NCBI RefSeq assembly: GCF_965641715.1
Contig: NZ_OZ282453.1
From: Escherichia coli
GTDB lineage: Bacteria > Pseudomonadota > Gammaproteobacteria > Enterobacterales > Enterobacteriaceae
Reading direction: 5' to 3' (one strand)
DNA: 64,000 nt
Made by a program: the position numbers and the translations under genes. The number at the start of each line of letters is the position of its first letter. Position 1 is the first letter of the stretch. Under the pieces are notes generated by a model. That model was not told where the DNA came from. It saw only the letters and a program-made list of their open reading frames with translations, and searched no databases. Positions 2,792-57,944 of the stretch are shown here, piece after piece.

Positions 2792-2989
2792 GATCAATCC
2801 CTGTTTAAATGTGGAAATTAATCCCGCTATTAAAGCAAGAATCCTACGGGAAGTAACCTGGAGCCGCAAAAAGTCGTACTAGTCTCAGTTTTTGTTAAAA
2901 AAGTGTGTAGGATATTGTTACTCGCTTTTAACAGGGCAACGGAACACCCGCCCAGAGCATAACCAAACCAGGCAGTAAGTGAGAGAACA

Positions 2990-4636
2990 ATGTCAAACAA
3001 ACCCTTTCATTATCAGGCTCCTTTCCCACTCAAAAAAGATGATACCGAGTACTACCTGCTGACCAGCGAACATGTCAGCGTATCTGAATTTGAAGGGCAG
3101 GAGATTTTGAAAGTCGCACCCGAAGCGTTAACTCTGTTGGCGCGTCAGGCGTTTCATGATGCGTCGTTTATGCTGCGTCCGGCTCACCAACAACAGGTGG
3201 CCGACATTCTGCGTGACCCGGAGGCCAGCGAAAATGATAAATATGTGGCGCTGCAATTCCTGCGTAACTCCGACATCGCGGCGAAAGGCGTTCTGCCAAC
3301 CTGTCAAGATACCGGCACCGCGATTATTGTTGGTAAAAAAGGGCAGCGTGTATGGACCGGTGGTGGTGATGAAGCGGCGCTGGCGCGCGGTGTCTATAAC
3401 ACTTATATCGAAGATAATCTGCGCTACTCGCAAAACGCGCCGCTGGATATGTATAAAGAAGTGAATACCGGCACCAATCTGCCAGCGCAGATCGATCTTT
3501 ATGCCGTTGATGGCGACGAATACAAATTCCTCTGTATCGCCAAAGGTGGTGGTTCGGCAAACAAGACGTATCTCTATCAGGAAACCAAAGCGTTACTAAC
3601 GCCCGGAAAACTGAAAAATTACCTGGTTGAGAAGATGCGCACGCTGGGTACGGCGGCCTGTCCTCCGTATCATATTGCGTTCGTTATTGGTGGAACATCT
3701 GCAGAAACGAACCTTAAAACGGTGAAACTGGCTTCCGCTAAATACTATGATGAACTGCCAACGGAAGGGAATGAGCACGGTCAGGCGTTCCGCGATGTGG
3801 AACTGGAAAAAGAATTGCTGATCGAAGCGCAAAATCTTGGTCTGGGTGCGCAGTTTGGTGGTAAATACTTCGCTCACGACATCCGCGTGATTCGCCTGCC
3901 ACGTCACGGCGCATCCTGCCCGGTCGGTATGGGCGTCTCCTGCTCTGCTGACCGTAATATCAAAGCGAAGATCAACCGTCAGGGGATCTGGATCGAAAAA
4001 CTGGAACATAATCCAGGCAAATATATCCCGGAAGAGCTGCGCAAAGCGGGAGAAGGCGAAGCGGTGCGCGTTGACCTTAACCGTCCGATGAAAGAGATCC
4101 TCGCACAGTTGTCGCAGTATCCCGTTTCTACACGCTTATCGCTTAACGGCACGATTATCGTTGGTCGTGATATTGCTCACGCCAAACTGAAAGAGCGGAT
4201 GGATAACGGTGAAGGGCTGCCGCAATACATTAAAGATCATCCGATTTACTACGCGGGTCCGGCCAAAACGCCGGAAGGTTATGCCTCCGGTTCTCTTGGC
4301 CCAACGACCGCCGGACGGATGGATTCTTATGTCGATCAACTGCAAGCGCAGGGCGGAAGTATGATCATGCTGGCGAAAGGCAACCGCAGCCAGCAGGTGA
4401 CGGATGCCTGTAAAAAACACGGCGGCTTCTACCTTGGCAGTATCGGTGGTCCGGCCGCTGTATTGGCGCAGGGAAGTATTAAGAGCCTGGAATGTGTTGA
4501 ATATCCGGAACTGGGAATGGAAGCCATCTGGAAAATTGAAGTGGAAGATTTCCCGGCGTTTATTCTTGTGGATGATAAAGGAAATGACTTCTTTCAGCAG
4601 ATACAACTCACACAATGCACCCGCTGTGTGAAATAA
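2990..4636 (+). CDS. fumA: class I (Fe-S) fumarate hydratase
   Basis: 548-aa [27 protein letters not shown]..., matches recalled FumA length and sequence. Confidence 0.95.
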
Positions 4637-42862: not shown

Positions 42863-43054
42863 TTAAAGACCTGCCGGGATTTCGATATTATCCTGGTGAA
42901 TAACTTTATCGACCGGGTAACAGTTACCGGGAATTTTCTGTTCGGTTGCTGCAGTCATACACTCCTGCATTGTCCTGTGAACACTGTCTGCAATATCAAC
43001 TGGCTCTCCGGAAACAAGAAAAGCTGTCAGAACAAGCGCAAATGCTGAATTCAT
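42863..43054 (-). CDS. ydfD: small secreted/membrane protein YdfD-like (dicB operon)
   Basis: ORF trimmed to MNSAFALVLTAFLVSGEPVD... (63 aa); start ATG overlaps the dicB stop as ATGA. Confidence 0.75.
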   Translation of the reverse strand: MNSAFALVLTAFLVSGEPVDIADSVHRTMQECMTAATEQKIPGNCYPVDKVIHQDNIEIPAGL

Positions 43055-43239
43055 TGTGTACATCCTTTTGGCATCAGACGTAAACGAGCCAGCATTGAAA
43101 CAATGCATATTTTATTTAATAGCTCCCGTTCTTGTTTTCTCTTGTTAATGGCATCTTCAGTAAATACAGGGTTACTGATAGTGACACCAATTTCAAAACA
43201 ACCTTCAGACGTATTAACGTTTGGTAATAACGTTTTCAT
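43051..43239 (-). CDS. dicB: cell division inhibitor DicB
   Basis: Internal Met of ORF 43051..43344 gives 62 aa, MKTLLPNVNTSEGCFEIGVTISNPVFTEDAINKRKQERELLNKICIVSMLARLRLMPKG..., matching recalled DicB. Confidence 0.88.
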   Translation of the reverse strand: MKTLLPNVNTSEGCFEIGVTISNPVFTEDAINKRKQERELLNKICIVSMLARLRLMPKGCTQ

Positions 43240-43413
43240 TATCGCGTCCTCAACAATGAATTTTGTGATGCAGTGCCTGGTGCCTCCAGGTGACGTTAAC
43301 CAGTTAACAATTAACGCCGGATACAGAGAATCCACCCATAACACTGTTTTTGGTTTTAACTGTTCCGCGTGCGCTTAGCCGCATTCACCGCATCACAAAA
43401 TTCACTTTAAAAA

Positions 43414-43466
43414 CGGCGGCAGAGCAGTCACGGAGTAAAACTGATACCGCCAAACGTCACCAGAAA
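43414..43466 (-). ncRNA. dicF: DicF small regulatory RNA (ftsZ-targeting)
   Basis: Reverse complement reads tttctggtgacgtttggcggtatcagttttactccgtgactgctctgccgcc, essentially identical to recalled 53-nt DicF, followed by a T-run; lies just upstream of dicB. Confidence 0.85.
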
Positions 43467-43910
43467 ATTGATAACAGAGGGCGTTGCAGCGGGGTTGTCA
43501 CTTAAGCGTATGGTCAACCTGACAACTCGGTGTCCTCAACGGGGAAGGAATAACCCCGCCATACTTACCGCCGCGCCATTTCGCGGGTTGCCACAACCGG
43601 AAGCGCACGGTCGAATTAAATTTAACGACACCGTACAGTGAGACGAACTTCGCCGTGCGCTTTCGTGTTGTGTGCCTGCTTTTAACCACGTCAGGCGAGG
43701 TGGTATCCTTCTTATCCAGAATAACCAAGAAGGAAATCTATATGACTAAAGAAGAATTTGTCTCTTATATTTTTGATAAAACGGTTGAAATGTATGCCGC
43801 TACTTACGGGTCCTGTAATCCTCTGAATAAACCAGAGGGGAAAGATGATTTCGACAAAATTTACCGCTTCTTGGAGGACCGCTATATCAAAAGGTTAGAG
43901 GACGCAGGGA

Positions 43911-44288
43911 TCAAATCCCCAGTGAAGTCACCATTGTCCTGAGAACTTGCAGGACGTCATGATCGTAACTTCCATCCAAACCGCGACGGCAAATTGCTTC
44001 TCGTATTACCGGAAGCAGTTCGCTGGAAATCTCGGTGCATATTTCACCTGATAATACGCCTGGCTCAAGTGAGAATATTGGTGAACTTACGGTCTTGGTC
44101 TCGACAGTTTCAGAGTCAGTGCCAACATTATAAAGCTCAACGAAAGCGGTCTTGATTTTCCGGGCCAGATCTTTTGCTGGCTCGCTTGCAATATCTTTCC
44201 CGATTTCTCGCAGCACAGAATGCAATGTATGAGCTGCTGTTTTCTGTACATCAGACGGTAAATCTTTAAATTCCATCGTCAGCCTCAT
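43911..44288 (-). CDS. hypothetical protein in the ydfB/ydfC position of the dicB operon
   Basis: 125-aa ORF whose start overlaps the ydfA stop (ATGA); K-12 has two short genes (ydfB, ydfC) here. Confidence 0.5.
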   Translation of the reverse strand: MRLTMEFKDLPSDVQKTAAHTLHSVLREIGKDIASEPAKDLARKIKTAFVELYNVGTDSETVETKTVSSPIFSLEPGVLSGEICTEISSELLPVIREAICRRGLDGSYDHDVLQVLRTMVTSLGI

Positions 44289-44440
44289 CAGTCAGTGTTT
44301 CTGGCTAACCAGCAACGCGCGCCAGATTCGGTTTTAAACGTTTTGCTTTTGGTATATGTCATCGCGGTGAACGTACCGTCCTGGTTGGGGAACACGCCAC
44401 ATACCAGAGATTCGCTGTTGCCAAGATCGATAGTATCCAT
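44288..44440 (-). CDS. ydfA: DUF1391 small protein YdfA-like
   Basis: Internal Met of ORF 44288..44596 gives 50 aa, MDTIDLGNSESLVCGVFPNQDGTFTAMTYTKSKTFKTESGARCWLARNTD; first gene of the early-left operon. Confidence 0.7.
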   Translation of the reverse strand: MDTIDLGNSESLVCGVFPNQDGTFTAMTYTKSKTFKTESGARCWLARNTD

Positions 44441-44632
44441 GCTGACCTCATTTCCCCTTAACGCCGGGGTAGCGGAACTGTTTGCTGAGAACACCGTGCG
44501 GTGTCTTGATGGAAGTAATTTAGTTTTCTCATTATTTTTCGTCAAGGTTTTTTTATGAGAAAACTCAAGTATTGGCGCAAGATAAAGCCAATACATTGAA
44601 ATGTAAGGCTTTAAAATTTTGTGAAGGGATGA

Positions 44633-45040
44633 TTATTGATGCTTGTTGCGTTTGCGAGCCTCTAATAGCTCGGTGAACAGGCGATTAAAATTCTCAACGC
44701 GGGCGCGGAGTTCGCTGAGTTGTGCTTGTTGCTCTGATTTAGGAAGTGCGCGATACAAACGCAGCATCTCTAACTCATCTTCCGATAAGTCTAAGGCACT
44801 ATCGAGTGAAACAGGGGGAGCTGGTGTTTTGTCCTCGTCGCCAAACAGTATCCAGGTTGGTGAACATTGCAATACCTCGGCGAGGCGATGCAAATTTTGC
44901 CCGCGCGGGGCTGTATGGTCACTTTCCCATAATGAAATTGATGAGCCAGATACGCCAGCAGCTTTGCTTAAACCGTTTTGACTTAAGCCTACCTGCTTAC
45001 GTCTTTCTCTAATGCGTTGACCTAAAGTTTTCTCGTTCAT
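44633..45040 (-). CDS. dicA: prophage repressor, DicA-like (XRE-family HTH)
   Basis: ORF trimmed to MNEKTLGQRIRERRK... (135 aa); HTH QNGLSKAAGVSGSSISLWE; C-terminal half ...LQCSPTWILFGDEDK... matches recalled DicA closely. Confidence 0.85.
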   Translation of the reverse strand: MNEKTLGQRIRERRKQVGLSQNGLSKAAGVSGSSISLWESDHTAPRGQNLHRLAEVLQCSPTWILFGDEDKTPAPPVSLDSALDLSEDELEMLRLYRALPKSEQQAQLSELRARVENFNRLFTELLEARKRNKHQ

Positions 45041-45117
45041 ATTTAGATATCTTAATAACCCTTGACTTGAGATTCCTTGAGTGATTAGCATTGAGAAAAC
45101 TCAATATTGGAGGTGCG
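45041..45117. promoter_or_regulatory. divergent immunity promoter/operator region between dicA-like and dicC-like genes
   Basis: 77-bp intergenic region with perfect palindrome attgag-aaaa-ctcaat (about 45090..45105) and repeated cttgag elements, SD ggagg for the rightward gene. Confidence 0.5.
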
Positions 45118-57165: not shown

Positions 57166-57528
57166 ATTAATATTAAATCGGATTATTTTTAGCGCTGAAT
57201 GTGAAATTTAAATAAAAAGGACTCTTCCATGAGTCAAAATCCTTGAAATCTTAAGGGTAAGATAAAAGGTCATTAGACAGAATGACACGTTTTATTAATA
57301 AATAAAGCTATTGTTTCATTCGTGTGTTTTTCTTTACAAAAGTAATCCTTGCTATGGTTGGTTAATCATGCGTTAATGGTGTTCTGGTTTGTTACAAAAT
57401 TATCTGAAGCAGTCATTGTTATAATTTTATTATTTGTACCTCTTGAGATTTCCTTGTTGGTTTTTCTCTCTGATATTTTTTTTCGGACCATTCTGCCCAA
57501 GGGCTAACTTCTTCAAAAGGTAATAATG

Positions 57529-57741
57529 ATGTCTAACAAAATGACTGGTTTAGTGAAATGGTTTAACCCTGAAAAAGGTTTTGGTTTCATCACGCCGAAA
57601 GATGGTAGCAAAGATGTGTTTGTGCATTTCTCAGCTATTCAGAGCAACGATTTCAAAACGTTAACTGAGAATCAGGAAGTCGAATTTGGTATTGAGAACG
57701 GACCTAAAGGCCCTGCAGCTGTTCATGTAGTGGCACTTTGA
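57529..57741 (+). CDS. cspI: cold-shock-domain protein CspI-like
   Basis: 70-aa [38 protein letters not shown]... with RNP1/RNP2 motifs; long AT-rich 5' UTR typical of csp genes. Confidence 0.9.
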
Positions 57742-57944
57742 GGTAGAAAATATTACAAACCATATTCACTTTAGATGCCCGTGTTGCCATGGTTCTCAGT
57801 ATAGAACATCATCTTTTGATGTTTCTGACAGAAATCCTTTCGGGGCAAAATGTATCTTTTGTAAATCAATGATGATTACATTTGATAATATTTCACAATA
57901 CTTAAATGTTAGCCATCTGTCGTTAGATTTAAGAAAGTGAAAAT

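Follow-up and report, generated by a model that had tools for sequence, protein, structure and literature searches.

A 66-codon open reading frame (ORF) lies opposite to the dicB operon of an Escherichia coli prophage, and the question that it raises is whether it is a gene at all and, if so, what a gene in this orientation might do. The DNA analysed is a stretch of 64,000 nucleotides (hereafter the window), which holds a lambdoid, mEp460-like prophage. On the minus strand of this prophage, the gene for a CI-like repressor (about 44633-45040) is followed by the early-left operon, whose first gene is a ydfA-like DUF1391 gene (44288-44440). The operon continues through the gene Ybl81 (43911-44276), the sRNA DicF (43414-43465; Rfam RF00039, 72.5 bits, E 6e-15) and the cell-division inhibitor gene dicB (43051-43239), after which ydfD and the gene for an 823-aa exonuclease follow in transcription order. 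The ORF is on the plus strand, opposite to dicB, DicF and the other early-left genes.

A small coding sequence under purifying selection

The frame (43742-43942) starts with the ATG at 43742-43744 and ends with the TGA at 43940-43942, giving 66 codons and a stop. The predicted protein begins MTKEEFVSYIFDKTVEMYAATYGSCNPLNKPEGKDD and ends SPLS. Directly 5′ of the ATG is aagaaggaaatctat (43727-43741), in which the Shine-Dalgarno (SD) region AAGAAGGA (43727-43734) has an AAGGA core (43730-43734) located 7 nt from the ATG. The start, the strong SD and the frame opposite the dicB operon are thus as a sequence-only reading of this DNA had described them. By itself, such a combination is not rare, as the window contains 135 ATG-initiated ORFs that reach 66 codons or more, and 18 of these have a strong SD core. 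It is conservation that lifts this ORF above chance.

Protein searches identified full-length homologues of 65-66 aa with 89, 88, 73, 57 and 54% identity. A further homologue, 42% identical and 73 aa long, retains the same motifs (MTxE[EQ]FVxY[IV]FDK[TA]V ... FD[KR]xY[RC]FL ... L.D). The ATG and SD are retained in all copies. The sequence-only reading had left open whether this was a genuine convergent small gene, and had named frame conservation and dN/dS in homologous prophages as one way to tell. The frame proved to be conserved in those prophages, and dN/dS calculated by the Nei-Gojobori method was 0.08-0.41 in every pair with at least 8 differences. In a six-frame control, the +1 frame of the small gene was the sole frame free of stops. 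Its pN/pS was 0.2-0.46, and most control frames had values of about 0.7-3.9. Low pN/pS was also found for the antisense frame that shares wobble positions with the gene, which contains 2-6 stops, and, in the closest pair (the window and the prophage L024), for two further frames, each again with 2-6 stops. Synonymous changes were saturated while pN was only 0.17-0.31. The 16 N-terminal residues are invariant, and their codons differ at third positions between genera (TTT/TTC, GTC/GTG, ATT/ATC, GTT/GTA). These third-position changes indicate that the constraint in this part of the gene, which overlaps no other gene, is on the protein rather than on an RNA or DNA element.

The small gene is already known, as an annotated hypothetical protein and a member of a described phage protein family. 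PGAP annotates exactly this coding sequence in BL21(DE3) (ECD_RS08100, hypothetical protein WP_000159335.1) and also in a strain identical to the window over a 951-bp query, and the gene is annotated in phage mEp460_ev081. The protein matches PHROG 34441 ("unknown function") with an E-value of 1.5e-50, residues 1-66 aligning to profile positions 1-66. Among 5426 complete E. coli genomes, the ORF with its leader was found in 397, and every copy was at least 95% identical. Some part of a wider query that includes DicF (43350-44300) was matched in 4589 genomes. An HMM search of 1.84 billion proteins placed the family in 13 clusters at 50% identity. Scanning genome contigs for diverse homologues returned one locus. 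A degenerate DNA pattern used on metagenome contigs was too loose, with four true copies, all near-identical, among at least 120 matches listed. Our search of the literature found no transcription start site, ribosome footprint or peptide for the gene.

From the pattern of substitutions, we conclude that this is very probably a real protein-coding gene under purifying selection at the amino acid level. What is annotated as a "hypothetical protein" in BL21(DE3), in REL606 and in about 7% of complete E. coli genomes would then be a real gene under selection. As an uncharacterised accessory gene of a prophage it is ordinary, and not a new kind of element.

The small gene travels with a convergent partner

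The 3′ end of the small gene overlaps that of the minus-strand gene Ybl81 (43911-44276; 121 aa, PHROG 33007) over 32 nt (43911-43942). In two IMG/VR prophages (L024 and L027), nucleotide homology to the window is confined to 43655-44276, an interval that comprises the 3′ arm of the long hairpin that precedes DicF, the region upstream of the ORF, the ORF itself and Ybl81. Homology to a Cedecea prophage (L003) is narrower still (43720-44033) and covers the ORF and the last 40 or so codons of Ybl81. Sequence comparison thus defines a mobile two-gene cassette of roughly 620 bp, about 43655-44276, which replaces the ydfB-ydfC genes of the K-12 prophage Qin. Base composition showed no deviation and no sign of foreign origin.

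The cassette was found in nine distinct contexts, in all of which the small gene is directed against the early operon and its partner reads with it. In the window, in BL21 and in mEp460_ev081, it follows the repressor and the first pL genes and precedes DicF-dicB. Elsewhere it is located before kilR-ydaE (Salmonella, L155 and L156), before YfdP/DUF2303 genes (Enterobacter asburiae, L154), before a tRNA (prophages L005 and L006) or between cro and a CP76/cII-like gene (Cedecea, L003 and L004). Since the cassette occurs before kilR, before a tRNA and between cro and a cII-like gene, the small gene is not tied to DicF.

In every context examined, an opposite-strand gene ends within the 3′ end of the small gene. 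All but the most distant copy have a homologous partner C-terminal domain (...ELLPVIREAI.RRGLDG.YDH.VLQVLRTMVTSLG.), which in the window corresponds to roughly 43914-44063. In L030, the most distant copy, the partner is a 63-aa protein in the same geometry, whose similarity to the C-domain is uncertain. For the C-domain, pN/pS was 0.2-0.6 in most pairs, pointing to purifying selection. All 23 viral contigs that encode it carry the small gene or a remnant: the gene is intact in 17, lacks the first six codons in five and is reduced to the last 15 codons in one. The one copy without the first six codons that was inspected has an IS1 junction at this point. A profile search with the partner C-domain gave no matches.

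Residues 1-55 of Ybl81 (encoded within 43914-44276, minus strand) match PHROGs 9419, 1363, 2151 and 6937, whose functions are unassigned. Given these matches to several families, the N-terminal third of Ybl81 is a shuffled N-domain common to different first genes of early-left operons, and the C-domain alone travels with the small gene. The Cedecea partner (L003, 3568-3912, minus strand) is reduced to the C-domain and has its own AGGAGA SD. As the usual stop is missing, its frame continues for about 56 codons past that point and spans the entire small gene on the opposite strand. This extension is probably due to chance, because other copies have stops there.

Disrupted alleles of the small gene also occur. 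IS1 is inserted after about codon 15 in L028 (about 5046), L029 (about 2002) and L170-L174 (about 2785). In these alleles both junctions were seen and the partner stays intact. The Shigella sonnei-type truncated proteins P0006 and P0007 seem to derive from these alleles. The remnant in L029 is close to the isrK and C4 antisense RNA genes. In L160 (2671), 362 bp equivalent to 43531-43892 of the window are deleted. Little of the small gene is left, its upstream region and the long hairpin are gone, and the DicF precursor is partly lost, so that the 3′ end of the partner gene is joined almost directly to DicF. The existence of IS1-disrupted and deleted alleles indicates that the small gene is dispensable for the host.

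The gene lies upstream of the DicF precursor

The left boundary of the cassette is a long hairpin in the early-left transcript (43591-43672, minus strand), with a folding energy of -38.3 kcal/mol and a z-score of -3.74. When sequences from different loci were compared by eye, its arms showed compensatory changes and its apical loop was variable. DicF is processed from the polycistronic dicBp transcript; a 190-nt species owes its 5′ end to RNase III and a 53-nt species to RNase E (Ragunathan et al. 2023, PMC10448788). Measured from the 3′ end of DicF, 190 nt reach back to about 43603, within the long hairpin. Judged by these lengths, the hairpin is suitably placed for the RNase III cut behind the 190-nt pre-DicF.

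Alignment to the K-12 prophage Qin showed near-identity only from DicF up to about window position 43669. The shared part thus comprises the long hairpin (43591-43672) and the 190-nt pre-DicF, and beyond it K-12 carries ydfC and ydfB, which are unrelated to the cassette in the window. There is no counterpart of the small gene in K-12, and no homology to ydfB, ydfC, ydaG, ydaF, sieB, kilR or dicB was detected. The sequence-only reading had placed the ORF in the region that in K-12 is the untranslated DicF precursor. This placement does not hold, as homology to K-12 ends at about 43669 and the ORF starts at 43742. By alignment, the small gene is instead upstream of the 190-nt pre-DicF, in a segment absent from K-12, and its mRNA would be antisense only to the long polycistronic transcript. 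The earlier proposal that it would be transcribed against the DicF precursor would accordingly hold for complementarity to the polycistronic early-left RNA, from which DicF is processed, and not for the 190-nt pre-DicF. At many dicF loci outside K-12, an antisense gene belonging to another cassette thus stands just upstream of the hairpin preceding DicF. This difference is relevant wherever findings on DicF/DicB regulation in K-12 are applied to B strains or pathogens.

Several other features were noted around DicF and further along the prophage. A promoter-like site in the dicF-dicB spacer (43304-43331, plus strand; TTAACA-16-GAGAAT, 9 of 12 consensus positions) would, if active, transcribe antisense through DicF. 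The RAST annotation of mEp460_ev081 includes a 51-aa ORF at the equivalent of 43350-43505 (plus strand), which is probably spurious. The DicF-dicB spacer and dicB leader (43207-43416, minus strand) gave a sub-threshold match to STnc100 (34.5 bits, E 1e-4), and a full STnc100 copy (114 bits) is located at 54083-54273 (plus strand) in the late region of the same prophage. The ranges 49597-49771, 53134-53383 and 57371-57787 hold a sok antitoxin RNA (hok/sok module), two tRNA genes and a cspA-type thermoregulator leader.

Upstream hairpins and a putative promoter

Two potential hairpins precede the small gene on the plus strand. The upstream one, ACCAC-N10-GTGGT (43685-43704), is conserved just ahead of the other (43706-43734), in which TCCTTCTT (43706-43713) pairs with the SD (43727-43734). 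This SD-pairing stem has seven pairs, includes one C-G to U-A compensatory change, and is itself conserved around a variable loop. The region folds with a minimum free energy of -17.9 kcal/mol (z-score -2.55), and both stems are conserved among copies that are 54-100% identical. The spacing between arms is variable, which argues for RNA stems rather than protein operators. As to the strand on which the SD-pairing stem forms, G-U pairs slightly favour the plus strand (84 versus 75 of 91 cells) and folding energies are mixed. Overall, the stem forms about equally well on either strand.

A putative promoter (43682-43709, plus strand) overlaps both stems. It consists of TTAACC (43682-43687), a 16-nt spacer and the extended -10 element TGGTATCCT (43701-43709), and the TGnTAnnnT pattern of the latter is kept in all diverged copies. 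The site has 8 of 12 consensus positions, below the threshold of 9 of 12 used in our scan, and it is plausible as a weak extended -10 promoter. A scan for intrinsic terminators after 43942 found none.

The word GAGAAAACTCAA occurs in the intergenic regions on the pL side (44557-44568) and the pR side (45093-45104), followed by GTATTGG or TATTGG, and these repeats are probably operators of the CI-like repressor. The region upstream of the small gene shares no 8-mer with the pL and pR operator regions, and GAGAAAACTCAA is absent near the small gene. The lack of shared operator words fits expression independent of the repressor.

Predicted structure of the protein

AlphaFold2, run with nine sequences, predicted helices at residues 3-25 and 31-54 and a disordered tail (mean pLDDT 77.6). 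Its sequence is hydrophilic: 12 residues are acidic, 11 are basic, and there is no hydrophobic span. The protein is predicted to be a soluble, roughly neutral helical hairpin of 66 aa. A Foldseek search of the model against BFVD and PDB returned nothing with an E-value below 2. For neither the small protein nor its partner did sequence searches of Pfam, NCBIfam, PADLOC and PDB return a significant hit, and no PADLOC defence-system model was matched. The disordered C-terminal tail (..PVKSPLS) is near-invariant, and it coincides with the conserved ..TMVTSLG codons of the partner. Because of this overlap, the conservation of the tail may be borrowed from the partner.

We also considered a hok-like type I toxin. 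This was rejected, since the protein is hydrophilic with two amphipathic helices and Rfam identified no antitoxin RNA here.

A fused chain of the small protein, a linker and the partner C-domain was modelled with AlphaFold from seven sequences, which makes for a weak test. The model (pLDDT 49, pTM 0.32) contained no confident contact between the small protein and the C-domain.

What the small gene may do

The best overall explanation, which we hold with modest confidence, is that this is a genuine lambdoid-prophage gene, whose product is an accessory protein of a mobile cassette expressed in the lysogen. A mechanism can be outlined only tentatively. The gene would be transcribed constitutively from its own weak extended -10 promoter, TGGTATCCT, which lacks the repressor operator words, so the lysogen, in which pL is off, would produce the protein. 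After induction, converging transcription from pL would shut the gene down. The protein would most likely bind another protein and serve an accessory, "moron" function for the lysogen, for example by modulating its partner protein or by acting on a superinfecting phage or a host target, in the manner of other accessory genes found in this slot. As a side effect, transcription of the gene and its mRNA would oppose read-through from pL towards dicF-dicB. If formed on the plus strand, the SD-pairing stem could keep longer transcripts translationally silent. With a start about 7 nt downstream of the -10 element, the native mRNA would begin beyond the anti-SD arm, so that masking would affect only longer read-through RNAs.

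The least probable alternative, to which we give very little credence, is a chance ORF whose conservation reflects constraint on the opposite strand (the DicF precursor and the 3′ end of the partner) or recent common descent. ORFs of this size are common, all E. coli copies are at least 95% identical, and the last 11 codons, which encode the tail predicted to be disordered, overlap the conserved C-terminus of the partner. Against this, the frame, its length, the ATG and the SD are kept in other genera at 42-73% identity and in loci without DicF; stops interrupt every other frame; and neither the saturated synonymous change at a pN of 0.17-0.31 nor the third-position differences in the invariant N-terminal 16 codons, which overlap no other gene, are accounted for. 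On this comparative evidence the idea appears close to refuted. A main function at the RNA level is a less remote alternative, which we nevertheless regard as unlikely. In this case the convergent promoter and antisense transcript would dampen leaky early-operon read-through into toxic genes (dicF-dicB, or kilR in Salmonella) through colliding polymerases and through double-stranded RNA formed with the early transcript, and the protein would be secondary. Such a role would agree with the orientation against the early operon in all nine distinct contexts, with the 3′ overlap and missing terminator, by which the transcript must run antisense into the partner gene, with the adjoining hairpin whose position fits the published RNase III cut, and with the presence of another convergent gene at the same place in Rac. 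However, amino acid-level purifying selection at saturated synonymous change indicates that the protein itself is maintained, and in Cedecea and in L005 and L006 no known toxic gene is located downstream.

We consider it similarly improbable that the small protein and the Ybl81 C-domain form a two-component system, as antidote and effector or as regulator and target, in a toxin-antitoxin-like or exclusion module. On this view, the lysogen would produce the small protein, and its partner would appear only after derepression. The strict co-occurrence of the two genes, which move as one unit, purifying selection on both, and their opposite inferred expression programmes are what such a system would lead one to expect. 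Yet the physical overlap of the 3′ ends could alone explain the co-occurrence, the partner is intact in alleles whose small gene is interrupted by IS1, the fused-chain model is not confident, and PADLOC, Pfam and NCBIfam gave no matches. More speculative again is the idea that the small gene and a Ybl81-type partner constitute an undescribed convergent "lock" module or act in sieB-like phage exclusion, which we think doubtful. If a lock were involved, the small protein, antisense transcription and the SD-masking hairpin would together silence the partner protein, dicF-dicB and kilR until induction. The explanation that we prefer remains that of an accessory protein made in the lysogen.

Comparison with known systems

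In size (63 aa), in its two long antiparallel helices and in its floppy C-terminal tail, the Rop/Rom protein of ColE1 resembles the predicted small protein. The two have no sequence relation, however, and Rop/Rom structures ranked only 20 and 33 in the PDB fold search, with E-values above 7. As far as the model goes, the resemblance is generic.

Morons are independently transcribed accessory genes located between phage genes, a concept that arose from comparisons of HK97 and HK022. Like a moron, the small accessory gene is present or absent between homologous prophages, lies inside a mosaic cassette, has a putative promoter of its own and opposes the flanking operon. It differs in that it travels with an operon-strand partner gene, shows no deviation in base composition and is not followed by a terminator. 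Given the last point, it is not a textbook self-contained moron.

The ydfB-ydfC pair of K-12 Qin occupies the same interval, between ydfA and the hairpin preceding DicF. In contrast to the small gene, ydfB and ydfC are operon-strand genes; they are unrelated in sequence to the cassette, and no antisense gene is found there.

The closest positional parallel is sieB of the Rac prophage, a superinfection exclusion gene that is also found in lambda and P22. The order in K-12 Rac is racR (-), ydaG (-), ydaF/DUF1391 (-), sieB (+) in tail-to-tail orientation, the sRNA kilS (-) and kilR (-). That in the window is repressor (-), DUF1391 (-), Ybl81 (-), the small gene (+), again tail-to-tail, DicF (-) and dicB (-). 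Both plus-strand genes therefore have the same position and orientation in a lambdoid early-left operon. Their products differ, as SieB is a hydrophobic protein of 162 aa and the small protein a predicted soluble helical hairpin of 66 aa; there is no sequence similarity beyond a 9-residue chance match (E 1.6), and no significant Pfam family. The small gene thus fills the "sieB slot" while being unrelated to SieB. The parallel extends to the neighbours: Rac (L033, K-12, 2906-3660) and the window (43414-43942) each combine a convergent gene with an sRNA (kilS or DicF) and an FtsZ-directed division inhibitor (kilR or dicB), and the parts compared are unrelated in sequence, the DUF1391 gene excepted. 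With its strict conservation and its place in the sieB position, the tail-to-tail pair offers functional work on prophage accessory proteins a small but reasonable target.
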